From a virus (taxonomy: Duplodnaviria; Heunggongvirae; Uroviricota; Caudoviricetes), in IMG/VR virus record IMGVR_UViG_3300014205_006828, positions 64,001 to 128,000 of that record: a DNA stretch of 64,000 nt; one strand, 5' to 3'. The notes under the pieces were generated by a model that did no database searches, was not told the DNA's origin, and saw nothing but the letters and a program-made list of their open reading frames with translations. Shown here piece after piece: positions 22,740 to 63,338 of this stretch. A program made the translations under genes and the position numbers. The first letter of the stretch is position 1; every line of letters starts with the position of its first letter.

Positions 22740-25724
22740 CTATGCTACGCCAGACATGAACAGACCAGCTATTTGGTTGTAAGGTATTACTAGCGGAACA
22801 TTGCTCCACCCAGCTTTCTTGAGATATACAGTGATTAGTACCTTGGTTCTCAAATCTGGGTATTGCGCACTGCTAGATATATCATTAATTGTTAGTGTCA
22901 TCAATCCAGTTGACTGATCCATATGAACACCAAAGACATTATCAATGATAATTCCATAGCCATCTATATCCGTTCCATCCTGATTTGGGAATATTGATTG
23001 AATCGACACGCCAAATCGAAGTTGATTACTTTCCAATGCACCTGATTTTACCGTAGTGCAATCAGCAAATTTCGCCGCAGGATATCCAGTGGAAGTGAAA
23101 CCATCACCACTATCCAAAACCAGCTTTTGATAAACATCAATCACCGCTTGGTTAAATTTAATCCCCTGAGGTAGCTCTAAGACAATGGTATGAACCTCAA
23201 AATCTTGTTTGAAATAGTTTCCGGACCGATCAAGAATTTGCCCTTTTCCAATAATAAGATTGTCAGGAACAAAGAAGTCGTTCCTTCCAGGATTGCATGC
23301 ACCTCCGAACTCGAAAGGATCGATGCACACAATAGCTTCATCAGCGATACAGACCCCGGTATTCTGATCTATTAGAGTTCTGGTATCGTTAGCAAAGGTG
23401 AACGTGGCTGGTACCAACCTAGCCTCGCTGCTGACTTGTAGCATGTAATCTTTCCAAAACGGTATTGGAGCAACCACGAACGGCACTGGAACAAATGGTA
23501 CTAGGATAAAGGCAGGATCCTCTGCGGTAATGTTTGGTACGCTATTAAATCCATAATACTTCAAATCAATAGCTGACAGATCGGCTGGATTTACTTTATT
23601 GGTGCTGTCACCATGGACTCGGATATACCCATCACAATCGTAATATCCATCATATCTCCCAGTTGAATTTTGAACTTCTATCTCAATATGAGTGAAGCTA
23701 GAGCCTACCGGGAATGAATGATAACCATCCTTTGATATGTAGGCAGAAATTAAATCAATATCATTATGCGAAACGTATCCATCACCATCTACGTCAGCAC
23801 GAATAATCTCAAGCGTATCGTATACACCAGCATTAATTAATGCCTGCGTAGACTCAAGTGATAGAGATTGCCCTAACAACTGAGTAACTCGATCATAATC
23901 AAAATGATCGATAATACCATCTCCATTCACATCTCCATAACCATCAGTGCAAAGACGAACCGCAGAAATACTATAGCCAATTCCTGCACAATTATTGTTT
24001 GGAATCAGTTTACTACCAACTAACTGCTGGGAAATTAGGTCTGCATTTGGGTTAATAATAATGAAAGTATTCCCTTTAGCTAAACCTGGGAATATTTGAG
24101 TTCCAGAAATTACATTATTGACCTTGGCATTAACATCTCGTGAGCAACCAATAATCACTGGATCGGTATTTTCCCTAATGATAGATAACGTTGCACTTGT
24201 GGCAAAGCTGAAACTAGGCTCAAATTGCTGACGAGAAAATACTGGGTTACCTGTACGTTCATCTTGAGCTTGCTGAAACTGCCTCTCTACAGCTTCTACA
24301 ACACCAGTGTTTAGGGTATTTTGCCCTGTATCTGCAAATGAATTTTGGTCAAATGCATAATCCACAACTGCCCCAAAATCATTGATAGTTGTCTTGGGAA
24401 TTTGGATACCATTGCCAGCATCATAGGCCATTCCATCCGCTACCTTTGCAGTATCGGACCAAACCTGATACCAAAGATCTGCCTCTGGAATATCAGTCCA
24501 CTCAGTAGTAAAAATAGATAGGCGATCATCCGTTACCTGACTATTTCCAATACCAGTAAAAATAGTTCCTGTACTGCTATCACCGGCACGCCCAATTGAA
24601 ATAGCATAGTACTTTCCAGGCACAATAACCGGATTGGCTGAGTTGCCCAAGATAGAATTGTTATATATCAAATCAATAGGTTGAAGAACATCGGTTAGAA
24701 CATATCCACGATTTTCTAAACTAACTTTATCTATACTGAATTGGGTAAGTGGAATTGGATTAGGATCAAACTCAATAGCTAGACCAGGAACTAGTTCGGT
24801 TGGTGACGTCACTGTGCTTTGAAGTTCGAACACACTGACTACTAATTCACCACTCCAATCATAATAATGTTCAATATCTGTATTGTTTTTGCGCACACCC
24901 AGAAGAACTGTAATCTTTTGGATATTGTTATTTTTTGCCAAGAATTTCTCAGATATCCTTGTGGTCACATCTCCTGGAACAAACTCAAAATCACTTTTGA
25001 CGGTGGTATTGATATGGAGGGCGTCTACATTATACTGAAGTCCAATACCAGCTTGAATAGTCTGGTATAGAGTGGCTGCTGGGTTTGGAGTCTTAAAGTC
25101 TCGAAAGAATAGATTTGGCTGCACATCTTGCGCAATCATGATGCCGTCACGCGATAACTGGAATGCGCTGGTTTCTCTAATAACTACACGCCCACCTAAC
25201 AAACGTGAGCAATTGTCATTCCCAAGAAAGTCATTGGTAAATATGGCAAGTATCTTAGCGTAATGCTTTTTTGTGGCCTGCTTCTCTTTCTTGTAAAAGT
25301 AGAACCTATCATATTGTAAATTACCCTGGAAATCCAAACCGATAATTAATACTTTAATGCTTAAACGGCCTCCAACTTTAGTTATTCTTTTGTGAATTTC
25401 CTGCGTTTCTGAATCTAATAATTCAACTTCAAGTTGATTACCTAGAATAGCATCTGATGGCTGTACCAAAGGTCTAAGCCCTGTTCCATCAAAGTCATTC
25501 GAAGCAATCAGTGCCGCCTGATCAGAGAACAAATAATCAGTATCAAAAATTACAATTTGCGATGAGGAAGATGGAAGCACACCTGAACCAAAATGATTCT
25601 GGACAATTGAAGCATCAATCTTGACGTTACGATCTGACTCAGTAGTCATATCGTCCTGATCAATTTGCTGTCCGTCGTACCACTTGACTTGAGTTTGAGA
25701 TACTGATAGATTTATCATATTCAC
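22740..25724 (-). CDS. Virion structural protein (baseplate/fibre-attachment position) containing a dockerin-like Ca-binding repeat pair
   Basis: Follows the wedge genes with a GTGA/ATGA-type overlap; N-terminus WYDGQQIDQDDM..E...HFGSGV resembles contractile-system baseplate/fibre N-termini; GDVNGDGIIDHFD and ADVDGDGYVSHND repeats. Confidence 0.65.
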   Translation of the reverse strand: MNMINLSVSQTQVKWYDGQQIDQDDMTTESDRNVKIDASIVQNHFGSGVLPSSSSQIVIFDTDYLFSDQAALIASNDFDGTGLRPLVQPSDAILGNQLEVELLDSETQEIHKRITKVGGRLSIKVLIIGLDFQGNLQYDRFYFYKKEKQATKKHYAKILAIFTNDFLGNDNCSRLLGGRVVIRETSAFQLSRDGIMIAQDVQPNLFFRDFKTPNPAATLYQTIQAGIGLQYNVDALHINTTVKSDFEFVPGDVTTRISEKFLAKNNNIQKITVLLGVRKNNTDIEHYYDWSGELVVSVFELQSTVTSPTELVPGLAIEFDPNPIPLTQFSIDKVSLENRGYVLTDVLQPIDLIYNNSILGNSANPVIVPGKYYAISIGRAGDSSTGTIFTGIGNSQVTDDRLSIFTTEWTDIPEADLWYQVWSDTAKVADGMAYDAGNGIQIPKTTINDFGAVVDYAFDQNSFADTGQNTLNTGVVEAVERQFQQAQDERTGNPVFSRQQFEPSFSFATSATLSIIRENTDPVIIGCSRDVNAKVNNVISGTQIFPGLAKGNTFIIINPNADLISQQLVGSKLIPNNNCAGIGYSISAVRLCTDGYGDVNGDGIIDHFDYDRVTQLLGQSLSLESTQALINAGVYDTLEIIRADVDGDGYVSHNDIDLISAYISKDGYHSFPVGSSFTHIEIEVQNSTGRYDGYYDCDGYIRVHGDSTNKVNPADLSAIDLKYYGFNSVPNITAEDPAFILVPFVPVPFVVAPIPFWKDYMLQVSSEARLVPATFTFANDTRTLIDQNTGVCIADEAIVCIDPFEFGGACNPGRNDFFVPDNLIIGKGQILDRSGNYFKQDFEVHTIVLELPQGIKFNQAVIDVYQKLVLDSGDGFTSTGYPAAKFADCTTVKSGALESNQLRFGVSIQSIFPNQDGTDIDGYGIIIDNVFGVHMDQSTGLMTLTINDISSSAQYPDLRTKVLITVYLKKAGWSNVPLVIPYNQIAGLFMSGVA

Positions 25725-28700
25725 TTCACATATTGAATACCAACCTTAGAGATGGCTGGCTTGAGAGCATTGATCAGGGCCTCCAACACAGTTTGGACGC
25801 GCAGATCTCCTGTAACTATGTTAAAAGAATCAATGATGTTGATGCCAAAATTGAAAAGACCAAATGTTGGGTCATGGATTACCGAGAAATCTTCCGTTTT
25901 TTCTACAGACTTATCAAAGTCCAGCAAGAATGTTGTAAAAGCATCCACGATAGATGGATAGATGAAATCGATATTTGTATTGTAATAAATGTCCCTGGGC
26001 TGTCCAGCAATAATGAGCGGATCAATAGATCGGTTCGAAATCTTCAAATTATCAAACCTAGCCTGTGCTCCGAAATTACCAGCAAAGTCCTGACCTACAG
26101 AGAATTGTTGTACCGTATCAGTGAAATTTATATCAGCTCGATAGATTTGGTTTCCTACTCCTCCTATCGCGGCCTGACCCCAGATTAAATCCTGGCCAAA
26201 TAAAATACCATTTTGCCCAAAAAGCAAAGTCCCACGTTCTTCACCATCCACGAACAATCGAATCTCATCTTTATTGTCCTGGCGATTGAACTTGAAAGAA
26301 GCCCTAACTCTGTGCCACGAATCACGCGGCCAGAATATAGGTTGTCGAGTTTGATACTCTTGACCGTTAGCATTGACAGTTAAGCAAATGAATCCTTCTC
26401 CATCCTTCGAAATAGTCAGCCGATCACCACGTACTCCAGATGGTACATAAGCTACTTTTACGGGCGTGTTCTGGTATGGAAGAGGTGAGTTTAGAAGAAG
26501 AGTCTTCCCGTCACTATCGATAATTCCACCATTGAAGTAATTAGTGCCCTGTAGCTTTGTATCCGTAACCAAACGTACATATAATATACGATTAGTTCGT
26601 GTTGAAAGCTTTAATCTACCCTTAGTGATGCTTACGGTTTCTTCGATAACGTTCGCAGCAGCATCAAAGTAAACCCGAATGCCAGGATCGTTATAAGTAT
26701 CATACCTTGGGCTAACCCAAAACTCAATTAGGCCCTCATTAGACGTGTCCAACAAACCACCGTTATCAAATACCAACCCCTTATCCTTGATGACAATACT
26801 GTGTCCAAACCTAGAATTGACACTACTACCAGACTGTATATATTCTTTATTAGCGAACTGGTAAAAATCGCTGTCATTTACTAATGGCAACTTGTCGAAA
26901 TGGAACAAGGCTAATGTATCTATATTCTTGATGAACGGAGAAACTTTAGTTGCGCCTGTAGTAATAGATTCCTCATTTAATCCAATCGTCTCACCAATAC
27001 GAGTATCTGTCAATTGTCTACTGAGAATTCGGAACTCATCCAGGATAGACTTTGCTGGCTTACTAAACGTAATATCATTTCCGATAATACCAATCTCTGA
27101 TGTCAGAGGATTGAACGGAACCTCAAGATACGAAGCGTAATCTACATCGTACCATCCAGGTGGTAAAGTATATGGATCGTTTGTAAATCCTGCCTTCTCA
27201 AGGAAAATGAATCCATTCTGGAAACCACTGCGCCCAATACTTATATTGTACGTAACATAGGATCCATTTTCAAAGTACCCACCAACACTTCGATCAAGCC
27301 GAATAGTTGTATTATCAATTCTCTCAACAATAGTATAGATACCAATAGCAGATATTGGATATGTAATTTTGAGTAATTGACCAACCTCTGAGGCTGGAAA
27401 ATAACCAAAAGGATCGCTGACGATAGTGAAATCGCCATAACCATCACTACGAAGAGATCCTCCAGCTTGAGTTTTGTAAGCAAACCTAATAACAGGATAC
27501 AGGCTATTCCCATCCGGCTCTGTCACTGAATATGCTTCTTTAACTTCAATAGCAACACTATCATCAGTTGAATCTATCGGAACGACTTTTACAAAAATAG
27601 ATTCAACACGCTTCCATTTTGATATAGTTTTCTGTTTCCCTGGTTTTGTAAATGTCAAAGTCTCACTAGGGCTAATAGTAGATGTTCCACTAATGATCAC
27701 AATAGCTGGTGTTGTGAAGTCAACATTATCACCTGTTATCCTAATCTCCAACTGCCTCCCCTCAATGTAATTGCTTGGTTGTGTAAAACTAATTTCAATA
27801 ATGCTTGTTTCAGCGCCGCCTATAGATATAAAATTCCCAAATGAATCTATTATAAAGTTACCAAAAGCATCAACAAGATTTATTCCCTGCTCTGACACAA
27901 AGAAGTTTCCAAAATCATCAATTAGGTAATTACCTAAGTCATCAACCAAATAACTAAGTTCAACTCCACCAAAAGTTGTAGTGAAATATCCATCAATAAA
28001 ATCTGCATTACCCGGCCCAACTGAACTTAATGGTAGAATCACTGTCTTAATTGACACATCATCCAGGTTTATTGGCGGAGGCAATCCTGTCTTTAGAATT
28101 GAACTACCACTCCAAGTAAAAACTCTGTCCTTTGATCGTCTGTGATTCAAACCAAAGGTCTTGATAAGCACGATATCTCCGGCATTGACATTATCGAAGA
28201 TAGTAATAATTCTCTGGTTGAGTGTATTACGATCAATAGAATAGGATGGAATCTCTGCTCTGGTTCCTGGAATTTCGCGTTCCACACCATAACCATCGCG
28301 AACAAAGACACCAATATTCTTGTAGATATCAATTTCTGTACCTACAACAAACTGCGGAGGATTGATAATGAAGCGGGCATTATTCAAAGAAGCAGGCATT
28401 GGAGCATTCAGCGTCATCTGAGTTCCAGAAGCCATAGAGATAACATATGTCAAAAAGTTTTGCTCTAAAATATCGATCTTATAGCCATCATCCAGAGATG
28501 ATAGGTTTACAGATGGAGACATTACCAAATTCGAGCCTTGGATCGTGACCAAATCGTTTCCAATAATAGAGTTATTGAACGCAACTCCTACAATTTGCTC
28601 TGGTACTACAGTTCTGAATCTATTGTATGATGCAACATCCGGAACGTTTCCATAACGTGCCAAGTTTGGAGTCTCCTGCCCATCCACATACAGATGCATT

Positions 28701-31700
28701 TCATCTCTACGATCAGATGAATTTAGAATCCAAGAAATTCCGATAGAGTGTTTTTGTCCAGCTGCCCAATTCTGAATATCAGCGCTGATTTGATATACAT
28801 TCCTTCGATCAGGCTGTATTAAACCAAATCCGCCGCGATCCCACACTTCAAATATCAGATACCCTCTGCCATCCTTGTATAAAGAGAAGCGGTTCTGTGT
28901 TTCATTCTTCCCGAAATCGAAGAAATAATGCTGATCGTCTGACATGAACTGAATTCCATCAAACGAAGTGCCAGGTATAACCGCACTATATCCATCGTAA
29001 CCATCTGGGCTTGCCATATCATAGCCGTCCAAACGAAATTCGAATTCTACTTTATCTAGGCCTGAACGTACGAAATCAGTCTCTTCATTAATGCTTTGAA
29101 TCAAATTCACATCATAAAATGAACCAGACGTAGTAATCGTTCCGGTATAAACATACCCATCAGGAGCATCCTTGGCCAAAACCTTCCAATGCTTAATATC
29201 TGTGTCGTAGTAAATGAATATACCAGTACATACAAAAATCAATGCCGGCAAACCCTCTGGGCTATGCTCATCTGTTCTATTTATTGAAAATTTTCCTGCG
29301 GAAGTCAATGTTGGATGATAGCACTTTGATCCAATGTAGATATTCTCGGCCGGTACCACATATCCATCTTTTAATAGCTCAAAAGTAATAGTGGCATCGT
29401 TATCAATACCATCCCAATCTGTCATAACGGACAACTCTAGAGTTCCCTCCTCCAGCCTTAGATTGTTGGAGATTGGAAGGGTCGCACCATCGCCAGCTTT
29501 CGTAACAGCAAAGCCTTGATCAAAGAATCCAGATGCCAAGTAAGGCGTCCCAAGAACACCAGACGGAACCTTGGCAAGATAGCTGACTCCCAGTGACCAG
29601 AATGCCGCTTCGACAATCTCTGGATCAATTTGGGTTACCCTAGCAATCAATTCCTTCATGGCAGGGATAGTTGGCCCAAGCGGGAAGGTCTGCAGGGCTC
29701 CCTGTAGAATATCTCGATAAATTTCGCGGTCTAAATCTTCATCAAAGACCTGTAGTTCTGGGATTTGTACTAGGGTTCCAAAGTTTTGCAGCAACGAATT
29801 TCGAAGAGCTCCAATTGAATACGTTACGTAATATGTATCGCCTTCATTAAGGATATTGCTGGTTCTATGATCGATAACATTGTCGCCCCACTCATATGAT
29901 ATTAAAATCTCATCAGTAACACTGGAATAATTGATAAAGAAATCTCCACGATTGTAATCTATGATTGGAGTAGCTTCTCCATTCATTACAACGGTATATT
30001 GCACATCAACTGCATCTCCTGGTACTGCAATATCTCCATTGAGATAGATTACGTTACCAAGAAAGTTGGTATATCCATCAACCAACTGCGCGCCATCACT
30101 GGTACGAATAATACTAGTGACACTGCCAATTTCAATGCCCGCCGAAACAAATGGGACAGTTATTGTGAGTGAGCCGCTGATTATTGTGCTGCATGTTTGA
30201 TCAACACTTCCTAGAGTGATTACGTTGGCAGAAAAGGTTGAATGTTCAGCGAAATTAAGCGGATCAGTATGATTGTTTAGATCGTAGCCGTCAAAGATGC
30301 CTCGAATCGTTTTGATATCATCAGTGACTGTGATTGTTCCGCTATAAACGAAGTAGGAGTTAAGCGAATCCTTGTTCGTGAAGCGCTCATCCGAAAAATC
30401 CATCAAACTTGGAGTTGGAGTAATGAATGCCTCGCCAAAACCAGTATAATCTAAGGTTTTTGAAGGGCCAAAGTTTGGATTAATGCTGTTATAAACCTCA
30501 GAAACCGAAATTACATGAGGATTGATTGGAGCAACCACAGGAATCTTGTACGAAACCGTTCCGATGCTCAAACTTTGAGAATTCGTAACACCAACATAGA
30601 TAAGTCCGGCGCGATAGTTGATTTGATACTGCCCAATCAACAACCGATTGATATTTACAGCTTCAGATAGCTCTTGCGCATCGTAATACAATTCTTTGAT
30701 AAAGATATCTGTCTGACTAAACCCAACGCTAGTGTTAAAACTAGATCCAATCACATCATCGGTGTTACCCATGATGTTTTGGTTTTCAATTCGTATTTTT
30801 AGAACGCGAGTACCTAGAATATTTGTAGATTCAGATTCTAGAATCAACGTTTCGTTCAAAACAGGAGTAAAAGAAGCTCTTTCGAAATTAATATCAGTAA
30901 TTCGTGGCGGAGTTCGGGAATCAAAGAATATTTTTTGGTCAGAAAATCTTCTAAGAGAATATATTTCTCCGGTTGTCTCGTTGTAGATCCTGAAAACATC
31001 AGTAACCGGAGAATGTAAGGTGTACAACGAATCAAGTGTAGCCAATCTGTTTTGGATACGCTCATTCAAGCTCTCAACATGTACATTTGCTACATAATCG
31101 ATATCCGGAACATAGGTTTGCTCAAATAGGTAGTTAATTTTTGCAGTTTTGGTTACCAGTTCGCGCAAAGGAGAGGCTACTATATCTATAAACTCAGGAA
31201 CATACGTGTAATCTAAACGTGGTATGTATGTTTTTCGATAGTAGTAATTCATTGCTGGAGGAAAATCTCCGGTACCATCATTCTTCACCGCTCCATAGAC
31301 GAAAATTCGGCCAGTTGCGTAATCTATCGAATATTCACCAGGATAATTTGGCAAACCGCCTTCACGATACGGAATTTCTCGCAAAAATGCCGGATGAGTG
31401 TTACGAAATGGGGTTTCAGAGTATGGATCTAGAAATTGAACACCACCAGATATAGGATTCTTATCACCTGAAGTCACTATAGGTGCATTTTTCAGAGAAA
31501 ACATCGTGATAATGGCCGGAGATGCCTCTCTTACAACCTCTACAACTTCTACAACCTCAATACTGGTTTCATCAACGACGCGCCCGAGAGACTTGAACTC
31601 ATACGATACTACAATCTTATCATTTCCGCTCGGAAGAACGAAACTAGGATCTTCTTTAAGTATGTCATTCAACTTTATTTGGTTATCAGCTAAAGTAATT

Positions 31701-47248: not shown

Positions 47249-47261
47249 AATTTGCCATATA

Positions 47262-51449: not shown

Positions 51450-52121
51450 TTATGCTTCGCCAGGATTGACGTTTCCAACTATGTTTTCCACCACATTAAT
51501 TAAACCAGCTGCATCAAGGGCTCCGCGGCGCTTGCCAATATCAGCCTGCCTTTCAAATGCATCATTATCAATGATATTGAGCTGACGAGAACTAGAAGCC
51601 GGAACAACGTTATTACCTTGGCCTAGATATGAGTAGATATGCTCTCCTACCCAACTCATTGTTTCAGAAATCACGAAATCCGAAGCTGTATAGGTAACTC
51701 CAAGGTTACGAATCCAAACATTCTTTATCACTGTAGTAATCACATTGTCGGAACCATTGAACCCATCTGCATCATTTTCATCCGCAGCAAAAATGTCCAA
51801 GATAACGATATCAAATGGAACACGCTGAGAAGATGCATGAACAAATCCACGCGAAAAAGCTGCTGCCATTCGTAAGTTATCAAACCTAATACGAGTACAA
51901 TCGCCTGAAATATCCGTAGACTTCTGAGGCACGGAATCGATGTGACCATCGGTTCCTACTTCATCAATCATATGAATTGCTCGGTCTTCTTTGTACGAGA
52001 TGGTTTGGATAGCTCCAATCGGGTTGCCATCGACCTGAATGATAATTTCGGTGCTGACGCCAGTTCTAGTGACGTTACGACTTGCATCTGTTAACACGCT
52101 CCCAGTATGAGGATAAACCAT
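51450..52121 (-). CDS. Tail tube protein
   Basis: Follows sheath; IIIQVDGNPIGAIQTISY, NVWIRNLGVTYTASDFVISETMSW pattern; AGGAG upstream. Confidence 0.82.
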   Translation of the reverse strand: MVYPHTGSVLTDASRNVTRTGVSTEIIIQVDGNPIGAIQTISYKEDRAIHMIDEVGTDGHIDSVPQKSTDISGDCTRIRFDNLRMAAAFSRGFVHASSQRVPFDIVILDIFAADENDADGFNGSDNVITTVIKNVWIRNLGVTYTASDFVISETMSWVGEHIYSYLGQGNNVVPASSSRQLNIIDNDAFERQADIGKRRGALDAAGLINVVENIVGNVNPGEA

Positions 52122-54844: not shown

Positions 54845-55651
54845 TTACAAAGCCTCAATTTGATCTAGAATCGATATAGATGCACCTATTGCGATATTGG
54901 GATTTGTGATGACTTCAGATCCCCATACTCTAAAATCTACGCAGAAATTGATACGTTCTACTACATCGCTGATAGGAATCAGGCGTCTCCACTCGGTACG
55001 AATGTCTACGCTAATCGTTGCTTTGTAAAGTTTATCCTGTTGCCTATCATCCCCTTCGGAAATACCCCCAAGACTTGGCTGCCCGGATTTTACCAACACA
55101 CCGGCTTTCCTCAAACTTTCAAACCGGATATCAGTAAACAGTAACATCACTATACTTACCAAATTATCCCTATCCAAAATATCACGGCTTATTACATCAA
55201 TTGCTATCGTGCCTTCCCACGCTCCAGCGAGGTCGATGTATTTTGGTATAAAGAACTCTTTTGAGTTTCCGTAGCCGTCAATTACTAATTGCTTTTCGTA
55301 CTCAACGACATCCTTATTCCTATTCATTGAAATTGGAACAGATCTGGCTGCCGTCATTTTTACCAAAAGAGCAGGATAAAAAATTGCATCGAATCTGAAC
55401 GCTTCGCCAATAAAGATGCGCGTCGTCAGATCATCATTGAGCCCAGCCCCCAAAGGTAGATCGGTATGATCGGGAACTTTTGGGAAACCCCAAGGATCAC
55501 TAACGTAATGGTAGAAAGAATCCTTCGAGAACTCTTCCCGTAGCATTCCGATGATGAGTTCCTTCGGATATGCCATGAGGGAATTTTGGAAAATGTGGTG
55601 AATCTCGTAAAGATCAGATCTGAATAAAGATCCTGTGCCCGGCGTAGTCAT
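54845..55651 (-). CDS. Tail terminator/completion protein
   Basis: Upstream of sheath; YPALLVK, GTIAIDVISRDILDRDNLVSIV, LYKATISVDIRTEW. Confidence 0.6.
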   Translation of the reverse strand: MTTPGTGSLFRSDLYEIHHIFQNSLMAYPKELIIGMLREEFSKDSFYHYVSDPWGFPKVPDHTDLPLGAGLNDDLTTRIFIGEAFRFDAIFYPALLVKMTAARSVPISMNRNKDVVEYEKQLVIDGYGNSKEFFIPKYIDLAGAWEGTIAIDVISRDILDRDNLVSIVMLLFTDIRFESLRKAGVLVKSGQPSLGGISEGDDRQQDKLYKATISVDIRTEWRRLIPISDVVERINFCVDFRVWGSEVITNPNIAIGASISILDQIEAL

Positions 55652-55733: not shown

Positions 55734-55745
55734 ATGTCTTTTTTG

Positions 55746-55774
55746 TTGACTGTCAGAACTAGCTAAGTTATAGT
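55746..55774 (+). promoter_or_regulatory. Sigma70-type promoter for the plus-strand lipoprotein gene
   Basis: TTGACT-17 nt-TATAGT, then AGGAG (55794-55798) and ATG at 55806; CTGTCAGAA repeated at 55750 and 55784. Confidence 0.75.
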
Positions 55775-55805
55775 GGTTGAGTGCTGTCAGAATAGGAGAT
55801 TTCAG

Positions 55806-56666
55806 ATGACCAAATACTTCATTTCACCGGTTCTTTTCGCAGTGATCACCATGGCTTGCAGTTCCACAACAACCACTCAATCCGGCTGTACAACCCAAGA
55901 ATGCTTTGACCAGCTGGAAGGTGTGGCTGGCAGTACATCTACTTCTACGAAAGTAAATAGTTCGACCGGTGGGTCAAGAGTTGCGAATGGTACCAGCGGC
56001 AATTCAACTGCAACCAAAACAACCGCAACGAGCACGATCGGCGGCAACTCCGGAACCACCACGAACACAGATATCGGCGGTTCAACCACAAGCACAGATA
56101 CCGGAACTGGTGGCTCCGTTGTCATCACTACGACCGGCGGAACCACGAACACAGATACCGGCGGCTCAACCACCACGAGCACAGATACTGGAACTGGTGG
56201 TAGTTACGTTGTCACTACGACCGCAACCGGCGGCAATGGAACCACGACAACGGAAGCAACCGGCGGCTCAACCACCACGAGCACGTGCGTTCCGAAGACG
56301 TGTGCTGATATTGCTACATGGGACGCGATTAGAAGCAATCTCTCAAAGCCGACCGCTTGTGGAGCGGCCACTGATGGTTGCGGCGGATTGCTCTCTTGCG
56401 GCCCGTGCGTCACCGATGGAACGGCAAATACGGATTGCGGTCAAGCTCCACAGACAGTTTCTGGAGGCGCAGATTGGAGCGGGGCGGGCGATGTCCCCAC
56501 TCCAAACGTCTGTGGCACGCGCTGCGTAAAGAACTTCGGTGGAGCATACTCAAGCGATTGCGCGGCGGGAAAAGAGGGATGGGCGTGTCCCTCCTCGATT
56601 CCTCCAACAGGATTAATTGGATGCGTTACACTCTTTAAGAATGCCTGGTGTTGCGATGCAGCTTAA
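55806..56666 (+). CDS. Lipoprotein with Thr/Gly-rich linker and Cys-rich myxobacterial-type C-terminal domain (start trimmed to MTKYF)
   Basis: Signal ending VITMA-C; mucin-like repeats; CVPKTC...CGAATDGCGGLLSCGPC and terminal WCC; 14 Cys in the C-terminal domain; GC-rich. Confidence 0.8.
   Translation: MTKYFISPVLFAVITMACSSTTTTQSGCTTQECFDQLEGVAGSTSTSTKVNSSTGGSRVANGTSGNSTATKTTATSTIGGNSGTTTNTDIGGSTTSTDTGTGGSVVITTTGGTTNTDTGGSTTTSTDTGTGGSYVVTTTATGGNGTTTTEATGGSTTTSTCVPKTCADIATWDAIRSNLSKPTACGAATDGCGGLLSCGPCVTDGTANTDCGQAPQTVSGGADWSGAGDVPTPNVCGTRCVKNFGGAYSSDCAAGKEGWACPSSIPPTGLIGCVTLFKNAWCCDAA
56050..56285 (+). repeat. Imperfect internal duplications encoding TTNTD(I/T)GGSTT(T)STDTGTGGS units
   Basis: Two ~87-bp units plus a partial third, visible in DNA and protein. 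Confidence 0.75.
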
Positions 56667-59600
56667 TACAGATACATGATCTCGACCTGGTCAATTCTCA
56701 TCGTTTGAGTTCCAGAACCAGTTGGTCCTAGCCATCTTCCAAAAACCGGAGTTCCACCTGGAAGGCCTTGCTTCATCTTCACGACCATCTCCTTTACCAA
56801 TGGAGCTGGTGGCCGAGTACCAGCAAACCCTGTAATCAATGCGTCGGATCGATATATGAGAGTGACATCGGTGTAGAATGGGCCTCCCGGATCGGTGAAT
56901 GGATTCTTGCTATCCACCATATTTCCATTAAGTTCCAAAGAGACTTGAGGGAAAACATTGATTGGGTCTGAATCTTTCGGGAGAACATCCCACGGCCCAC
57001 TGAAGTAAACGTGTATCTCGACCGATAGTAAGTAAGCGCGATCTGGTATTACAGAAGAAAGCGGAAGAATCAAACCAATAGTACCGTCATTGGTCGACAG
57101 TCCACCACCATTCCATTCCCAAACCCAACCACGATCTTCAAAGAAACGAACCGATTTCAAGCCCTTGTTAATGCTGGTGGCAGGGCTTCCATACAACAAC
57201 CGTTCATTGTTTTCAGTGTTTGTAATAGCGGTACCAGCTCCAGGATCTAGATGGAACAGAGGAATTCCAGAAGCCATATTTGGAACCGTCTTTACCACTT
57301 GATTTACGTTCCAAGCCGCGAATTTCGAACCCCGACCATAAATTCCGTTGAAGTTGGCATTTGAAAGTTCTCCGTATCCATCAGGATCTGGAGAACCGGA
57401 CCAAGAAGCTAAATTGAAATGGCTAAAAGTATTGCCGTAAATTGCAGCGGTGGCATCTGAATAGATATAGCCAGCAATTCCCACACCATCTTGCTTGCTG
57501 ATGGTATTGCCTACGATTGTACTGGATTCACCTCCATAACTCCAAATACCCCAACCGCCATTTCCAGAACCATTTGGGGTAGAATTTAAATCAACGCCAG
57601 CAATGTTGTTGATGATGTTTCCAGTAATAGACAAGCCAGGGCCTTGAGTATAGATGCCGTGTATGTAACCAGATGTCAAACCATCAAATCCGTCAATGGT
57701 ATTGTTTGCGATGGTTATATTTGCTGGATAGAGGCCATTGCTAAATACCACAAGCGCCCGACGTGCCTCCGATGCATCTGGAACAAATGCATCGTAAAGG
57801 ACATCATCCCATCGCTTGATTGTGTTACCAGTTACACTTGACTTCAATAAGTTTGCCCCAGCAGAAGCCTCTATCTTTAGGTAATAACAATCATTATCGC
57901 GTACAACAAAAGATACTGTATTTCCCGTTGAAAAATTCACGCCATATGCATATTTATTATCAAATGGGTTCATTGTGGCAGAAAACCCAGAGTATATTAG
58001 TTCGGCTTTATTATTATCAATCACGAATCTACCGGCTTCTGTAGACCCAATCCAGTTATCTACATTGAATCCGATTAGACCAAAGCGATTGTTTTTGATG
58101 ACAAAGTTCTCAATCAGAACCTTATTCATGGCCGTATATCCACTATATTCCACGGCGGGGGTTGCACGACCACCTATCAAAATTCCTTGACGTCCATTAA
58201 TCTTAGTATCAGATACCAAGATGTCTTGGAAATATGGAGATGACATAGAGACGTCTGGAGTATTGCTATTCACAAAAGCATAACACAACGCTCTATCAGC
58301 TTGCGTATCAGTGAAAGTATTATTCACAAATCTACCATTGTGGAACAGATTATAACTATTACCCGTAGCTGAATAAATGGCCACGAATGGTGCTCGCTGA
58401 GCTGATGTAGAATAGAACCGTGAGTTTTCAATTCCAAAATCAGAGATGGTAGCCGATAGTGGTATTCCATCAATTACAATACCACCCCAATTACCACCAG
58501 TACAAAACACATCATTAGCGTCTGCATACAAATGATGGACTGGTGTGTATGTAATATCCGCATCATCAATAGTCCAATTTCCGCTAGTGAAAGCTAGTCC
58601 CCGGGCTTCATAAATTACATATGAACCACCAATTAGTTTAACAGGACTGGTAAAGTTTAGTGTAAGGCCGTAATTAAGAATCACGTCCTTAACCTTAACT
58701 TCTTTAATGTGATACTCATTAACCCAGTTCATTAAGGCTTCTGGAGTTATAAAGTTGACATTACTAGGATTGCCGTCATCATAACCACTCTGAGAATTAG
58801 CATCAGAATACGCCCAACTATTAATCCCAAGATCTTGATTTACAACAAACCTTCTAGCATCAGATGGCGAAACAACTCCACCACTCACTGTAGCTTTGTA
58901 AATAATTGTAAGATCCTTTCTGTTATCTACAATTTCTTTGAACGTCAATGCCTCAATAAAGTTCAAAGGATTACTTCCGTTATCTTTACGTATCGATATC
59001 AACTGACCGGTGTCGGTAACACAAATAAAGTACTCTCCATTGGTAGTTGGAACACCAACACTTGTAGCATCCATAGGTACAAAAGAACCATTAACTAGAG
59101 CTAAACCACCTTTGAATGATAATCTGTAATTTTCTGTGCTTATGAATTTAAATCCTCTAATAATACCGTTAGCATGAAGATAACGCTCTCCAGATTCAAT
59201 GAATTTTATCGCTGAATCTCCTAAATTACTTTCGGATATGGTTCCAAAATCTCTAAGGTCAGTGATAGATTTGAAAACAAAACCATCATGACTTACACCA
59301 GCTACAGCAAAATATTCATCGTTATTTTTAAGTGTTGGGAATAATTCAATTGCAACAGTTCCCATTGGCATTGTAGTTGCATTTCCATACGTTTCCCTAA
59401 ATTCAATATCAATGAAATTTACACCTGATTTGTCGTAAACTCTGACTACATGATTTTTCTTCGCTTTAGCAGCTGGACCACTTGTAAACCCATCCAATGA
59501 TACCAGATAAAGATTAAATTCTCCAGTTGTAGCATTCCAACCCGCAATGCGTAGCTTAATGAAATTACGGAAATCGGTAACTCCAACACGCTCGCCTGTA

Positions 59601-61957
59601 AGCTTGGGAGATACTCTCCTAATTCTCCAAGACAATGAACCTATATTACCACTACCTGGTACAGGCCCACTATCGGTATGAGCCATTCTAGCGCGCTCAA
59701 CCGCCACTGATTTTCCAATATCATTTACAAAAACTTCATGATAATGATGATAATCAGTTGGATCTGATAATTCTGCCCCAACCATATTTCCAATATTAAA
59801 CATCACAGAATCATCTGAGAAGTATACACGAACACGCGATTGTAATGGAAGTGGGGCTTGAGCTGGATTTGCCGTACCATGAATGCTGTTCAACACAGTG
59901 ATATTGGTTTGGCCAGCACCAGTACACGAGAACGAAACACTATCAATGATGAATCGCCCATAATAATTAATTGTCGTATCTCCTGGTGTATCTGATTGAA
60001 CCACAATAGTCTTGCCAGGAGCTAAGTCTTCAGTTGCTAGATCAAATGGAATTGAATATGTAACAAAATTTGTATTATGAGGTATGTCTGCTGTAATGTT
60101 AGTAACAATAGCAGACCAATAACCATCGCCTTCTGTAAATCTTGGCGTAGCTAAAGAATCTCTTCTATTCCCATTTATAATTACATTACGACCACTTACT
60201 GGAGTAATGATGAGTGTGGAATAATTAGAAGCAGAAATTGTTGTTGGGTAAGGTTCGCTCACTCCCAAACGAGACATAACCGGAGTTGCGAAACCAGATC
60301 GGCTAAAGCCTAATCCTAACGCATCGTATTGATCAGTGGTATCTCCAATAATGTTATTGACATATGAACCTTGTTCAATATTTCCTGTAATGTAGTTAAT
60401 TTGACCAGAAATAATAGAGAATGAGGACCCATTATAATCATCTGCTAGCATAATGCCAAACTCACCTTTGTGAGCGAAAGCAATAAATCGGTAATTATAA
60501 CCTGACAATCTCAACATTTTATTGGTATTCTCCACCACAATATCAAGATTGTAATACCCTGGTGTAACCCCTTGATTTCCACTAACATCAATAGCTGGAA
60601 GATCATAGAACACATCTTTATTACCAGTCGGATACAGTCTAAGGTATAGATTGTAATGAAGAGCATTAATAACCCCAGGATCAAATCCAATACCTACTGC
60701 AGTAGCTCCTCTTGGGCTACCGAGAATAATGGTATCGAAAAATGATTGACTAGAATATATACTTGGTACAACACCAGCAGCTGCCAAAACACCACATGTG
60801 TTTATATCGAAATTTGGACGATCAATTCTGGCATAACCTTCGTATCCATCACCAGTATCAAACATATTGTTGGCGTTTACCCTCACTGACCAATCAGATC
60901 CTGACAAAAACCTAATAGACATGATTGGATATGAAGTCTCTATTCCATTTCCGTAGTTAAGACGAAGAATATCACCAACCCTAACATTAGTAAATAGAGA
61001 ATCAAATACAAAATTCGTATTGTCTGGTAAGAATTTAATGACATCATCACCATTATTGATATTGTCATGTGGAGCTATTTTACTAGGTTCTGCTAGATAG
61101 GCATGAATCTTAGTTGGAGGAACAACGTTTATAGTATATCCATCACGCTGTAAATTTTGAATACGAGCTGTTCTAGGAATACCATTGGCATTCATCGTAG
61201 ATCTATCCACACCTGAAGATAAAGTCTCCTGGTTATCCACAAATCCCAAGGCTTCTTGTACATTGGTCAAGTATGCCGGCAGTTGTGTGAAAGTAGATGT
61301 GTCTACAGAAATAGCTGTCGCTGGGTGAACAAGTGCGATAGTGGCATTTTCATGTCCTACCAATTCGTTGTTGATTTCAAGAAGTGCCTCAGCTACTTGA
61401 GTAGCTGGTCGTAGATTATGATCCGTATCACGTAAACCATCCCATGTATATGTATCGCGAGAATCTGTCGGAATGGCATTGATATCAATATGACTCGCAA
61501 CATGTCTTGCTGATGTTAGATTATCTAGCAGTAACAAACCACCAGAAATATGAGTCAAGAAATTGGCATTTTCCTCGGCCAGAAGGGCTTGAGCAATATC
61601 AACACTAGATTGCAGTGATACAACATTTGAGTGTAGCGAAGCCGTACTAAAATTCAAATCTAATTTTACTTCTTTGATTCCGGCATTGTTGGCAACTTGA
61701 TTATTTGTAATTGGTAGAGTCACTAACCCAATCGCTTGGAGCGCCTCCGCTTTTGGATTTCCATCTGGTCCAATAAGTACAGAGATGCGATCATTTACGC
61801 TTGATTTTGAACCTTGTGGATTCAATCCTAAAGTTTTCTCAATCGAAAAAACAGCCTCTCTCAATTGATTGATAGCGGACGAACCAAGCTCTGAGAGATT
61901 ATCATCAATCCTCACGATTGTCACATCATTATCTAATGAATTTGGATATCTTATCAT
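56663..61957 (-). CDS. Large tail spike/fibre with C-terminal parallel beta-helix (pectin-lyase-like), possible depolymerase or receptor-binding protein
   Basis: N-terminal YPNSLD...AINQLREAVFSIEKTLG virion-anchor motif; H.A..I motifs; repeated beta-helix rungs (FVIKNNRF, FVIDNNK, VTGNTI, ITIANNTI, SITGNII, TIVGNTI, IYGNTF). Confidence 0.68.
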   Translation of the reverse strand: MIRYPNSLDNDVTIVRIDDNLSELGSSAINQLREAVFSIEKTLGLNPQGSKSSVNDRISVLIGPDGNPKAEALQAIGLVTLPITNNQVANNAGIKEVKLDLNFSTASLHSNVVSLQSSVDIAQALLAEENANFLTHISGGLLLLDNLTSARHVASHIDINAIPTDSRDTYTWDGLRDTDHNLRPATQVAEALLEINNELVGHENATIALVHPATAISVDTSTFTQLPAYLTNVQEALGFVDNQETLSSGVDRSTMNANGIPRTARIQNLQRDGYTINVVPPTKIHAYLAEPSKIAPHDNINNGDDVIKFLPDNTNFVFDSLFTNVRVGDILRLNYGNGIETSYPIMSIRFLSGSDWSVRVNANNMFDTGDGYEGYARIDRPNFDINTCGVLAAAGVVPSIYSSQSFFDTIILGSPRGATAVGIGFDPGVINALHYNLYLRLYPTGNKDVFYDLPAIDVSGNQGVTPGYYNLDIVVENTNKMLRLSGYNYRFIAFAHKGEFGIMLADDYNGSSFSIISGQINYITGNIEQGSYVNNIIGDTTDQYDALGLGFSRSGFATPVMSRLGVSEPYPTTISASNYSTLIITPVSGRNVIINGNRRDSLATPRFTEGDGYWSAIVTNITADIPHNTNFVTYSIPFDLATEDLAPGKTIVVQSDTPGDTTINYYGRFIIDSVSFSCTGAGQTNITVLNSIHGTANPAQAPLPLQSRVRVYFSDDSVMFNIGNMVGAELSDPTDYHHYHEVFVNDIGKSVAVERARMAHTDSGPVPGSGNIGSLSWRIRRVSPKLTGERVGVTDFRNFIKLRIAGWNATTGEFNLYLVSLDGFTSGPAAKAKKNHVVRVYDKSGVNFIDIEFRETYGNATTMPMGTVAIELFPTLKNNDEYFAVAGVSHDGFVFKSITDLRDFGTISESNLGDSAIKFIESGERYLHANGIIRGFKFISTENYRLSFKGGLALVNGSFVPMDATSVGVPTTNGEYFICVTDTGQLISIRKDNGSNPLNFIEALTFKEIVDNRKDLTIIYKATVSGGVVSPSDARRFVVNQDLGINSWAYSDANSQSGYDDGNPSNVNFITPEALMNWVNEYHIKEVKVKDVILNYGLTLNFTSPVKLIGGSYVIYEARGLAFTSGNWTIDDADITYTPVHHLYADANDVFCTGGNWGGIVIDGIPLSATISDFGIENSRFYSTSAQRAPFVAIYSATGNSYNLFHNGRFVNNTFTDTQADRALCYAFVNSNTPDVSMSSPYFQDILVSDTKINGRQGILIGGRATPAVEYSGYTAMNKVLIENFVIKNNRFGLIGFNVDNWIGSTEAGRFVIDNNKAELIYSGFSATMNPFDNKYAYGVNFSTGNTVSFVVRDNDCYYLKIEASAGANLLKSSVTGNTIKRWDDVLYDAFVPDASEARRALVVFSNGLYPANITIANNTIDGFDGLTSGYIHGIYTQGPGLSITGNIINNIAGVDLNSTPNGSGNGGWGIWSYGGESSTIVGNTISKQDGVGIAGYIYSDATAAIYGNTFSHFNLASWSGSPDPDGYGELSNANFNGIYGRGSKFAAWNVNQVVKTVPNMASGIPLFHLDPGAGTAITNTENNERLLYGSPATSINKGLKSVRFFEDRGWVWEWNGGGLSTNDGTIGLILPLSSVIPDRAYLLSVEIHVYFSGPWDVLPKDSDPINVFPQVSLELNGNMVDSKNPFTDPGGPFYTDVTLIYRSDALITGFAGTRPPAPLVKEMVVKMKQGLPGGTPVFGRWLGPTGSGTQTMRIDQVEIMYLY

Positions 61958-61979
61958 ATAATTCTCACGTTGCCAAAGC

Positions 61980-63338
61980 TCAACTAGCTAGCGATGGGTG
62001 TGTTAATAGGAACTGAGCACCACTAGGAGTCCTGCAGTAAAGATTGTCACCATTAGCAAACACAAAAACTCCATTTATGGGGTAGGGTGTCCCTCCCGAC
62101 GATCCTGGCCCAAGACAGTTGGAGAAGAACGTTACATCCCCCAAATTTACACCACCACGACCACCATAGCACGTACCTTCAATATTAACCTGTCCAAGAC
62201 CAGAATTAATGTTTATGTAACCATCATCTCCTGGGGAATTATGAGGTCCAGCCAAAAACCCTATACCAGAATAAATGTTTAGATCTCCACCTTTCTGATA
62301 AGTTCCACATTGTGCAATGATTTCAAAATCAGTAGCTGTGTAGTCTGTCTCGTATTGACTAATAATCACACCATTGAGAGCTGGATCGAAATATACATGC
62401 CGGCTATCTATCGATATATATCCATTATTAGCATTTAAATGGAGCTGCCCAGAATGGTTATTATTTGGATTATGACCAGATTTCAACCAAAGATCTCCAG
62501 GGGTTCCAGTATTATTTACAGCCCCCCATGGAATTGATTGCGCAGTTATGTACATACTTGTAGCTATTGGCGTATCCCAATCTTCCTGCGTTAATACTGC
62601 AGGATAAGTTGAATCAAAACTCAAAGCCGAAGCTTGAACAGACACTACACCTGGATAGCTATAAAGATAAACACTTCCATGCTGGCCCAAACTATTTACA
62701 CCAGACTCCAGCCATAAGCTACTTGGTGTTGCGCTACTAGTTGTTCCTTGAGAGATTATGAAAAGATCATTTGGTGAGCCAGAAGAATCGTTTTGAGTTA
62801 TTAATGGATGTAATGATGCCGAGTTAAAGGCCAGACGAGAAGTCCACAAGCTAATCATTCCGTCATATTGTCCTGAACTAAAATTGTATCCTGCTCCTAA
62901 TATCAAATCACCACCACTGCCACCGCCAGAATTGCCTTGGCTCCAAATCTGTAAAGATTCAGCTTTTGTCGTAAGATTGGTGAATTGTTTTGAAATAATG
63001 CTACCGCCTGAACCGACTGGAAAGAATAAATCTCCCCAACTAGAATCTATGGCAGTTGGCGTACTCCTAAGAGCACGTCCAGAAGTTCCATCATAAACTG
63101 GTACGGTTCCGCTAGCAACTGGTGCTGAATTTCCAACCACAACAGATCCGAGCCCAATTATCATAGTACGAATATCGTCCAATGCCTGTTGCACATTACC
63201 TGAGTTAATCTCAGAAATTTTTGAGGCCCAATGAACCCAATCTCCACCCTCTACATGAGCGATGAAATCCTGCTTATGAGTGGCCGAATACCCAGCCTCT
63301 CGCGGGCGAGTAGATCCTATGTATCTAGTTCTTACCAT
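61980..63338 (-). CDS. Fibre-like virion protein with repeated (G)DL.I.SG beta motifs
   Basis: GNVQQALDDI coiled segment, VYDGTSGRAL, and repeats GDLILGAG, DLFIISQG, SLWLESG, GDLWLKSG, GDLNIYSG. Confidence 0.6.
   Translation of the reverse strand: MVRTRYIGSTRPREAGYSATHKQDFIAHVEGGDWVHWASKISEINSGNVQQALDDIRTMIIGLGSVVVGNSAPVASGTVPVYDGTSGRALRSTPTAIDSSWGDLFFPVGSGGSIISKQFTNLTTKAESLQIWSQGNSGGGSGGDLILGAGYNFSSGQYDGMISLWTSRLAFNSASLHPLITQNDSSGSPNDLFIISQGTTSSATPSSLWLESGVNSLGQHGSVYLYSYPGVVSVQASALSFDSTYPAVLTQEDWDTPIATSMYITAQSIPWGAVNNTGTPGDLWLKSGHNPNNNHSGQLHLNANNGYISIDSRHVYFDPALNGVIISQYETDYTATDFEIIAQCGTYQKGGDLNIYSGIGFLAGPHNSPGDDGYININSGLGQVNIEGTCYGGRGGVNLGDVTFFSNCLGPGSSGGTPYPINGVFVFANGDNLYCRTPSGAQFLLTHPSLAS

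Follow-up and report, generated by a model that had tools for sequence, protein, structure and literature searches.

Why does the tripeptide Asp-Gly-Tyr (DGY) recur in the tail proteins of a phage that encodes a set of glycan-building enzymes right beside them? The question is raised by a 64,000-nucleotide stretch from an uncultured, huge Caudoviricetes phage (IMG/VR record IMGVR_UViG_3300014205_006828, positions 64,001 to 128,000), hereafter the window, for which a sequence-only reading had proposed that DGY is an exposed acceptor motif for the adjacent glycosyltransferases (GTs). No account of the motif was found in the literature searched. Our analysis suggests a so far undescribed virion mark, best read as a site at which enzymes encoded by the phage would attach sugars, and we tentatively take DGY as a sequon for tyrosine glycosylation on tail proteins. 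All genes mentioned below lie on the minus strand unless stated otherwise.

DGY enrichment in the structural genes

The hand counts of the sequence-only reading were all reproduced and give a total of 32 DGY in the structural block, against 2.73 expected when the expectation is computed for each protein from its own residue composition (11.7-fold, Poisson P ∼2e-23). Shuffling the residues 5000 times produced 2.7 DGY on average and never more than 11. By a wide margin, DGY is the top-enriched tripeptide of the block, the runner-up TIS reaching only 3.3-fold. A short motif is over-represented here beyond composition, as a sequon-directed glycosylation system needs. The repeat had also been placed at the protein rather than the DNA level, which is borne out by an enrichment found only in frame and by varied codons: of the GAYGGNTAY matches, 32 lie in frame 0, three in the remaining frames and a single one on the antisense strand, and the codons and coordinates quoted for the tracts at 28988-29032 and 53446-53475 are exact. 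Since DGY codons match general usage, the signal belongs to the protein. It is moreover carried by the complete and ordered motif. Across the window and the relatives G001 and G002, DGY reaches 12- to 18-fold, while DG[^Y], [^D]GY, D[^G]Y and NG stay at 0.8- to 1.1-fold of expectation. None of the permutations YGD, GDY and DYG shows an excess. Neighbouring DGY lie ≤12 residues apart more often than under random placement, and among 220 non-redundant sites the flanks show only a mild preference for Gly or Trp at +1. As controls, T4 virion proteins contain 5 DGY versus 1.8 expected (2.8-fold) and phage G tail proteins 2 versus 1.65. One count had to be corrected: the enzyme block at 1-22481, credited with about one DGY, holds 4 (1.0 expected). 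Three of these are in an uncharacterised 385-aa protein encoded within the sugar cluster (9190-10347), for which we found no family match and a sole homologue, in the closest relative, and one is in a GT2 protein (20663-21397).

Carriers of the motif in the window and its relatives

The richest carrier is the 2281-aa wedge protein of the peripheral baseplate (25721-32566), in which 11 of the 23 DG dipeptides belong to DGY, including the tandem tract LDGYDMASPDGYDGY, and which shows a weak Laminin_G_3 match at residues 2049-2133. Next to it, the 994-aa distal tail protein (22740-25724) has 6 DGY, and its residues 596-663 make up a dockerin type I calcium-loop domain. Three more are found in a 710-aa baseplate-region protein (38008-40140) and four in a 1764-aa spike or fibre protein (56663-61957), while single copies occur in the baseplate J-like wedge protein (32576-35854; Pfam PF04865, PHROG 6), a 219-aa tail protein (50753-51412; same column in 14 of 49 homologues), a 268-aa protein adjoining the sheath (54845-55651; kept in 45 of 56 homologues) and a Gly-rich, fibre-like protein of 452 aa (61980-63338). 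Additional to the 32, four DGY belong to a 1258-aa fibre-like protein whose gene enters the window with its 3' end (63381-64000) and extends beyond it; the homologue in the relative G001 has seven.

The tail sheath (52228-54696; PHROG 279), with 4 DGY, is supported as such by an AlphaFold model (pLDDT 80) whose best Foldseek matches are phage tail sheaths (E ∼1e-15). As had been claimed, its sites (186, 203, 409 and 414) are confined to the inserted outer domains, and the 15 DGY columns observed across 67 sheath homologues all lie outside the C-terminal core (residues 500-822). Three presumed inner proteins of 1698, 319 and 735 aa (42152-50428), the last called tape-measure-like from a weak TMP_3 match, are devoid of DGY, and their families contain 1 copy in 107 homologues against 11.4 expected. 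The 223-aa virion protein of the tube region (51450-52121) is DGY-free in 65 homologues.

The enrichment is seen in ∼140 related IMG/VR contigs, with 539 DGY versus 59 expected in 77 sheath-linked loci. It reaches 13- to 15-fold in the families of the sheath and of the 1764-, 268- and 219-aa proteins and 21-fold in that of the ORF at 63381, and is near 0 in the tape-measure-like and tube families. The tail module of the near-complete relative G001 holds 69 DGY against 3.8 expected (18-fold); outside it the excess is 1.8-fold, and a 46-kb block with portal and terminase has none. The carriers are sheath outer domains, wedge, spike and fibre, and the proteins without DGY are those of the tape-measure-like, tube, portal and terminase classes. 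In G001, we also observed His-rich and Cys/His-rich tracts beside the densest DGY tracts, which hints at metal binding.

Site turnover and structural setting

In the 1764-aa family, 36 distinct DGY columns were counted, of which 20 are occupied in one sequence only, and at the DGY columns of this family and of the sheath, a cell without DGY is a gap in about half of the cases. Among ∼930 ungapped alternatives at DGY columns there are 0 DGF or DGW, 1 NGY and 2 EGY; Phe does appear at the Tyr column, but only without a preceding D-G. In motif-less homologues this column holds a polar or charged residue in 65% of cases and is therefore a non-core position. In two AlphaFold models (the sheath and wedge residues 1040-1740), DGY is located at β-hairpin turns and loop-strand junctions of outer domains or in low-confidence loops (pLDDT <50), and none was seen in a long helix or mid-strand. 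Asp and Gly are the last two turn residues and Tyr the first strand residue at wedge positions 1067, 1136 and 1525 and at sheath position 414; DGY columns of homologues that correspond to sheath positions 151, 216 and 448 conform to this arrangement as well. The tandem tracts sit in low-confidence, low-complexity loops without a hairpin. An EF-hand or dockerin calcium loop was considered as the source of the motif and rejected: the D-x-D-x-DG context occurs at only 1-2 of the 32 window sites (in the dockerin domain of the 994-aa protein), and Asp upstream of DGY is not markedly enriched among the 220 non-redundant contexts.

A conserved glycosyltransferase beside the DGY-rich genes

The glycan-building cluster (7319-22481) comprises an SDR, a DegT aminotransferase, a GT11, four GT2, a GT4 and two FkbM methyltransferase genes, together with a GT10 on the plus strand, and is broken up by NUMOD3/TnsA-like and LAGLIDADG endonuclease genes. 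It is located between the tail and replication genes, and its target could instead be DNA, a polymer of the host surface or Ser/Thr residues. Among the ORFs of 7319-22481 that were compared with Pfam, none matched a lipid-carrier priming, flippase, polymerase, ABC exporter or O-oligosaccharyltransferase family.

Most of this set is not kept across DGY-rich relatives (GT11, GT10, two of the four GT2, the FkbM methyltransferases and DegT), and the two GT2 genes at 19628-21397 are kept in nearer relatives only (13 of 24). The SDR epimerase/dehydratase for nucleotide-sugar modification (7319-8248) is kept in 22 of 24. The GT4 (21360-22481; Pfam Glyco_transf_4 and Glycos_transf_1) has an orthologue in 24 of 26 related records, including all 24 that span the region. 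In each of these 24 genomes, with sheath identity down to 38%, wedge gene, gene for a 1000-1500-aa DGY protein and GT4 follow each other in this order and orientation. The protein encoded immediately upstream of GT4 is a homologue of the 994-aa protein in 23 of 24 relatives, and the gap between the 1000-1500-aa DGY gene and GT4 is often <70 bp, with a small ORF intervening in some genomes. As the sole GT kept beside DGY-rich genes in all relatives, GT4 is the candidate writer of the mark. Its EX7E glutamates, E263 and E271, are unchanged across 17 orthologues; a GT with an intact catalytic motif is encoded beside its putative substrates, as a sequon-directed system needs. Against solved structures, GT4 gave no sequence match at E up to 0.01.

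We found no relative devoid of GTs: a GT4-led sugar module is present in all 24 relatives that span the region, and this universality leaves the presence of GTs without discriminating power. In the sister clade A (G005-like), DGY is weaker (1- to 3.5-fold in sheath-proximal loci, 3.5- to 10-fold in wedge proteins) despite a full sugar cluster with two GT4, a further GT1-like protein, two GT2, a methyltransferase, a formyltransferase, DegT, an RmlA-like protein and SDRs. DGY strength does not scale with the size of the sugar cluster. The acceptor claim of the sequence-only reading is upheld in part. On the exposed parts of the tail, DGY acts like a unit under selection, being specific in order and residues, gained repeatedly at non-homologous positions, clustered in tandem within flexible loops and absent from inner proteins, and the cluster is a genuine glycan-building set lacking recognisable lipid-carrier or export genes. 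The proposed link between motif and cluster is weakened by the poor conservation of most window GTs and by the situation in clade A.

Alternative explanations

The motif might be purely structural, a favoured β-hairpin cap with an Asp-Gly type I' turn and a Tyr starting the next strand, unread and unmodified, which accumulated in β-sandwich-rich tail proteins for good folding and assembly or to resist Asn-Gly deamidation in long-lived virions. The turn-strand placement of several sites in both AlphaFold models, the good conservation of some of them (as in the 268-aa family) and the mild excess in T4 virion proteins agree with such a cap. Tape-measure proteins are usually helical, and if the DGY-free inner proteins are mostly so, the absence of DGY from them requires no avoidance. 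Although the sites lie at turns, the test for a generic type I' Asp-Gly turn failed: DG[^Y] at 1.0-fold and NG at 0.8- to 0.93-fold of expectation in DGY-rich tail sets indicate no general turn preference. A cap would also have to account for a Tyr that is never exchanged for Phe or Trp after D-G at homologous columns, for fast turnover with many sites private to one sequence, for tandem tracts in loops that form no hairpin, and for the lack of a comparable excess in non-virion proteins of the same genomes and in phage G tail proteins. Overall, we consider a purely structural role unlikely.

DGY tips could instead be direct binding sites that together make the tail surface adhesive, with multivalent, low-affinity contacts to host polysaccharide or metal ions; Asp could act as a hydrogen-bonding partner or carboxylate ligand, Tyr through stacking or as a phenolate ligand. 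In composition the motif resembles antibody binding loops, outer tail proteins display it on exposed hairpin tips, and the wedge region consists of strings of β-sandwiches with weak matches to glycan-binding proteins, besides the Laminin_G_3 match. Metal sites are known in tail fibres (the His-x-His iron sites of T4 gp37), and the His runs and Cys/His clusters of G001 would be in line with them. However, a strict residue order that none of the permutations can replace is ill-suited to a generic sticky surface, no common pocket or flanking context emerged among the 220 non-redundant sites, and the EF-hand or dockerin context is confined to one or two window sites; we consider this reading unlikely. 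The motif statistics in favour of a reader would also suit a non-sugar site, be it another modification or cross-link of Tyr or Asp (phosphorylation, nucleotidylation, dityrosine or isoaspartate chemistry) or the docking of an assembly chaperone or decoration protein. The need for the Tyr hydroxyl is compatible with several chemistries, and large β-rich fibre proteins commonly need dedicated chaperones, such as T4 gp57A. We see little likelihood in this proposal: across five near-complete relatives, Sulfotransfer_3, GT8 and Fic gave 0 matches and Pkinase matched in only two, and we identified no candidate reader gene with a suitable distribution, in contrast to the universal and adjacent GT4 and SDR.

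Proposed mechanism and comparison with known systems

Tyrosine O-glycosylation is rare, and we know of no GT that prefers DGY. In the glycosylation reading, DGY would be a short linear motif held by selection on the solvent-facing tail (sheath outer domains, wedge, spike and fibres), typically capping a β-hairpin tip, where Asp and Gly close the turn and Tyr opens the next strand, and also arrayed in tandem in flexible loops. From its statistics, distribution, turnover, structural context and gene linkage, we infer that a phage enzyme in the cytoplasm may read it as a sequon, either ahead of tail assembly or in its course, with Tyr as the candidate acceptor. The best candidate for this writer would be the retaining GT4, whose gene in every relative comes right behind those richest in DGY. 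It may be supplied by the conserved SDR, a nucleotide-sugar enzyme, and the variable GT2, GT10, GT11 and methyltransferase genes may extend the glycan. If true, the tail would be sugar-coated, its DGY tyrosines bearing at the hydroxyl a glycan specific to the lineage.

Cytoplasmic enzymes of comparable logic exist: HMW1C/NGT acts at Asn-X-Ser/Thr, the GT4-family GtfA (GtfA/GtfB) glycosylates serine-rich adhesins in the cytoplasm, and EarP glycosylates the β-hairpin tip of folded EF-P. The proposed system would share with them a soluble cytoplasmic GT, a short motif or hairpin tip and independence from a lipid carrier. Their acceptors are Asn, Ser/Thr or Arg, whereas the phage candidate is Tyr; GtfA and the candidate writer are both GT4, a likeness at the level of the family, and the comparison of the phage GT4 with solved structures gave no sequence link to any of these enzymes.

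Among tailed phages, mycobacteriophage virion glycans are reportedly attached to Ser/Thr and, to our knowledge, no tripeptide sequon has been described for them. According to PMC12619734, GTs encoded by mycobacteriophages act on the capsid and on the tail tube of these phages (Freeman et al. 2023, Cell Host Microbe), where the subunits bear the glycans at their C-termini. Both cases involve a tailed phage with its own cytoplasmic GTs and structural proteins as acceptors (here candidates), but in the present phage the candidate is a Tyr-containing tripeptide spread across sheath, baseplate and fibres, and portal, terminase and tube-region proteins lack it. Tyrosine O-glycosylation has been described in the S-layer glycoproteins of Paenibacillus alvei (SpaA) and Thermoanaerobacter (PMC2943079), where, as proposed for the phage, the glycan is borne by the tyrosine hydroxyl of a surface-array protein. 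That glycan is built on a lipid carrier, exported and transferred outside the membrane by an oligosaccharyltransferase; a pathway of this type (lipid-linked, with a WsfB-like oligosaccharyltransferase) was discarded here, none of these functions being recognisable by Pfam in 7319-22481. Enveloped-virus N-glycan shields and chlorovirus capsids, the latter glycosylated by virus-encoded enzymes (PMC9614988), differ by their eukaryotic hosts and Asn linkage, and in enveloped viruses the work is done by host machinery. The N-glycan shields nevertheless resemble DGY in that exposed virion proteins carry an excess of a short motif whose sites come and go fast, and chloroviruses, as the phage cluster might, combine virus-encoded GTs with methylated or rare sugars.

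Results

The tripeptide Asp-Gly-Tyr (DGY) occurs 32 times in the minus-strand structural block of the window (22740-63338), against 2.73 copies expected from each protein's own composition. This 11.7-fold excess (Poisson P about 2e-23) stands well apart from the second most enriched tripeptide of the block, which reaches only 3.3-fold. Within-protein shuffling, the test proposed by the sequence-only reading, gave a mean of 2.7 and a maximum of 11 copies in 5000 rounds. All the hand counts of that reading were reproduced, and the tandem tracts and codons that it quoted are exact. It had placed about one DGY in the enzyme block (1-22481), which actually holds four, three of them in an ORF at 9190-10347 for which family, Atlas and structure searches gave no lead. 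Four further copies are contributed by the gene starting at 63381, which extends past the window. The signal lies at the protein level, since GAYGGNTAY is found 32 times in frame, three times out of frame and once antisense, and since the DGY codons are mixed and track general usage; a DNA-level explanation is thereby ruled out.

The excess is also strictly dependent on the residues and their order. The observed/expected ratio of DGY is 12-18 in the tail modules of the window and two relatives (G001 and G002), compared with 1.0 for DG without a following Tyr, 0.9-1.0 for GY without a preceding Asp, 0.9-1.0 for D-x-Y with x other than Gly, and 0.8-0.93 for NG. Since only DGY departs from expectation in this series, neither amino acid composition nor dipeptide bias nor a turn preference of Asp-Gly in general can be its cause. 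Within the window, the permutations YGD, GDY and DYG show no enrichment, GYD and YDG are in slight excess (about 2.6-fold), DGF reaches 2.5-fold, and NGY, EGY, DAY and DSY are at or under expectation. In 220 non-redundant DGY contexts there is almost no constraint on the flanking residues, apart from a mild preference for Gly or Trp at +1.

The trait is clade-wide, as 77 IMG/VR loci found through their sheath hold 539 DGY versus 59 expected. In the near-complete relative G001 (392 kb), which was analysed whole, 92 copies are present versus 16.6 expected; its tail module alone has 69 versus 3.8 (18-fold, P about 7e-61). Outside that module the enrichment is 1.8-fold, partly due to a small cluster of fibre-like proteins, and a 46-kb block with portal and terminase genes is devoid of DGY. 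By protein family, enrichment is 13- to 15-fold for the sheath (52228-54696), the 1764-aa spike/fibre protein (56663-61957), the 268-aa protein (54845-55651) and the 219-aa protein (50753-51412), and 21-fold for the family to which the ORF at 63381 belongs. Across 107 homologues, the 1698-aa, 319-aa and tape-measure-like families jointly contain a single DGY, and the 65 homologues of the tube-region protein contain none. We do not read this depletion in inner proteins as a sign of avoidance because the homologues are non-independent and tape-measure-like proteins are presumably mostly helical. As controls, the virion proteins of T4 contain 5 DGY versus 1.8 expected, and the tail proteins of phage G 2 versus 1.65. 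A 369-aa Ser/Thr/Gly-rich protein with three DGY is encoded outside the tail module, at contig positions 53981-55090 (about 9-10 kb ahead of the window start). It is homologous to a DGY-bearing protein of a separate small cluster in G001 (20-34 kb), so there are probably more appendage genes away from the main tail operon.

DGY sites appear to be evolutionarily mobile. The sheath family displays 15 distinct DGY alignment columns, all preceding the conserved C-terminal core, which extends to the family the earlier remark that sheath copies lie outside this core. Of the 36 DGY columns in the 1764-aa family, 20 are occupied in one sequence only. Gaps fill about half of the cells without DGY in these columns, which places the sites in indel-rich regions. 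Pairs of DGY no more than 12 residues apart exceed random placement in both G001 (14 versus 6.3) and G002 (10 versus 2.1). In the extreme case, a 301-aa protein of G001 bears nine copies, six of which sit inside one low-complexity tract beside a histidine run. The inserted domain of the sheath (residues about 150-250) and an upstream fibre-like protein, which is the counterpart in G001 of the gene at 63381, share a ~100-aa domain in which two DGY are conserved (pattern DGY-AKF ... L-DGY-G ... SNGILSF).

The window belongs to a 131-kb contig from an uncultured huge phage, and its minus strand carries all the large genes. The contractile-tail module (22740-64000) includes the sheath (PHROG 279; AlphaFold model with a pLDDT of 80 and Foldseek matches to phage sheaths at E about 1e-15), a minus-strand baseplate J protein (PF04865), a gp25-like wedge subunit (PHROG matches), a 735-aa protein with a weak tape-measure match, and several very large proteins without a family match. 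The sugar cluster (7319-22481) encodes an SDR epimerase/dehydratase, a DegT aminotransferase, GT11, GT10, four GT2, one GT4 and two FkbM methyltransferases. Scanned against Pfam, its ORFs yielded no family for lipid-carrier priming or for flippase, polymerase or oligosaccharyltransferase function. The cluster is broken up by two homing-endonuclease-type genes at 8241-9128 (NUMOD3 and TnsA-like) and 13207-14178 (LAGLIDADG), the latter with relatives at other locations in related genomes.

The region downstream of the baseplate was compared in 24 genomes, reaching down to 38% sheath identity, after clustering of their proteins. In all 24, the wedge protein (2281 aa, 25721-32566 in the window) is followed on the same strand by a DGY-bearing protein of 1000-1500 aa (the 994-aa distal tail protein, 22740-25724, in the window) and then by an orthologue of the GT4 glycosyltransferase gene (21360-22481, minus strand). 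Many of the gaps are shorter than 70 bp; a small ORF intervenes in some genomes. Both EX7E glutamates are retained by all 17 GT4 orthologues compared. The GT4 sequence gave no match among solved structures and fell only in generic viral GT4 clusters in the Atlas, and a single-protein scan with the 994-aa protein returned no match. The remainder of the sugar cluster is less constant: SDR is present in 22 of the 24 genomes, two GT2 genes are kept in 13 (nearer relatives only), and the distribution of GT11, GT10, the FkbM methyltransferases and DegT is even patchier. The GT2 genes at 19628-20413 and 20663-21397 were rejected as specific writers, having no orthologues in four DGY-rich genomes (G019-G022), where GT4 takes the form of a tandem double GT4. 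In one DGY-rich subclade (L193:6902-9166, minus strand, and the G020-G022 orthologues), the first half of this ~750-aa protein matches the 'GT4-conflict' family.

A sheath tree separates two clades. In clade B, which includes the window, sheaths carry 2-4 DGY and the loci are 7- to 17-fold enriched; in clade A (G005-like), sheaths carry 0-2 and the loci are 1- to 3.5-fold enriched, with wedge proteins still at 3.5- to 10-fold. Clade A has a sugar cluster at the same position, comprising two GT4, a further GT1-like protein, two GT2, a methyltransferase, a formyltransferase, DegT, an RmlA-like enzyme and SDRs. An alternative sequon was dismissed for the DGY-poor G005, whose tail module lacks any outstanding tripeptide. 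Weak DGY beside a full cluster is compatible with a sequon of clade-variable use and is not positive evidence for it. Relatives devoid of the sugar module were sought and none was found: GT4 occurs in every record spanning the region, and two related records without a GT4 match stop short of it. The comparison of DGY with glycosyltransferase content therefore has no negative class. In G005 (80-93.5 kb; L081:1-13500), the RmlA-like nucleotidyltransferase, SDR, DegT aminotransferase and formyltransferase genes would together make up a route to an N-formylated amino-dideoxy sugar.

Discussion

DGY is very probably a selected, exposed and order-specific motif of the outer tail. Mechanistically, it is most parsimoniously explained as a sequon read by the conserved, adjacent and soluble GT4-led sugar module, with tyrosine as the candidate acceptor, a reading that we advance tentatively and short of an even chance. 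In its full form, the proposal is more doubtful: DGY would be the first sequon for tyrosine O-glycosylation by soluble enzymes, in which the phage GT4 would recognise Asp-Gly-Tyr hairpin tips of folded tail proteins in the cytoplasm, and variable further glycosyltransferases would then build clade-specific glycans on these tips, giving sugar-coated tails to a large group of huge phages found worldwide. The literature searched contains no paper mentioning a DGY motif, and work on related topics is likewise without one.

A purely structural role as a hairpin cap is unlikely, even if the predicted geometry is of the kind that it calls for. As judged from DSSP strings, pLDDT and substitution patterns, DGY 186 and 203 of the sheath model lie in loops adjoining strands, and 409 and 414 flank a hairpin turn. 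In the wedge model (residues 1040-1740, pLDDT 69), a tight turn ends with Asp-Gly and the next strand begins with Tyr at DGY 1067, 1136 and 1525; copies 1360 and 1424 are in loops abutting strands, 1180 comes after a strand where confidence is modest, and 1188, 1191 and 1708 are in loops with pLDDT below 50. No site of either model is mid-strand or in a long helix. On the other side stand the substitution patterns: among about 930 ungapped alternatives at DGY columns, there are no DGF, no DGW, one NGY and two EGY. Where Asp-Gly is lacking, Phe does appear in the Tyr column, and in motif-less homologues 65% of residues there are polar or charged, so this column is not a conserved core position.

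That DGY acts directly as an adhesive or metal-binding tip seems improbable. The densest tracts (L102:12547-13452, minus strand, and G001 324635-326728, the closest relative) adjoin histidine runs and Cys/His clusters, and HHH is 22-fold enriched in the G001 tail module, a proximity that hints at possible metal binding. The modelled wedge region resembles beta-sandwich strings, its matches to glycan-binding proteins being weak only, and the wedge protein has a sub-threshold Laminin_G_3 match. A calcium loop was rejected as a general account of DGY. Equally improbable, in our view, is a site for another modification or for docking: a protein kinase occurs in two of five near-complete relatives, in which Sulfotransfer_3, GT8 and Fic family genes were not found.

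Were DGY a modification site, it would define a new virion decoration of phages, with a tripeptide sequon on tyrosine and a soluble phage enzyme as its writer, and a large, environmentally widespread group of huge phages would coat their tails with self-made glycans. Such a coat could influence stability and the recognition of hosts, as well as how recognition by hosts or grazers is evaded. The motif is a simple handle, as DGY peptides can be searched in metaproteomes, and a three-residue sequon read on folded domains would serve glyco-engineering. Even if structural or adhesive, a tripeptide enriched 12- to 18-fold, clade-wide and restricted to the surface is an unexplained design rule of tail proteins.

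Several other features of these genomes deserve mention. Residues 596-663 of the 994-aa protein match a dockerin type I domain (PF00404, E 1e-7), which implies a putative calcium-dependent docking to a partner. In the 258-bp gap between this gene and GT4, a small ORF of ~65 aa (22526-22723, minus strand), below the listing threshold of at least 100 aa, combines a lipoprotein-type signal (Leu-Leu-Ser-Cys) with a Gly/Ala-rich tail, and may encode a lipoprotein of the superinfection-exclusion type. The gene starting at 63381 (contig 127381-131157) encodes a 1258-aa protein whose N-terminal ~700 aa are a long, degenerate Gly/Ser/Thr/Ala/Val repeat (type GVGSS-GTSTTSGVG), likely an extended fibre stalk. 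Finally, a 383-kb contig with 52% sheath identity (JAIXLO010000160.1) is binned into a Chitinophagales (Bacteroidota) MAG, a weak hint at Bacteroidota as host phylum, and a second short match sits in a Hydrogenedentes MAG.
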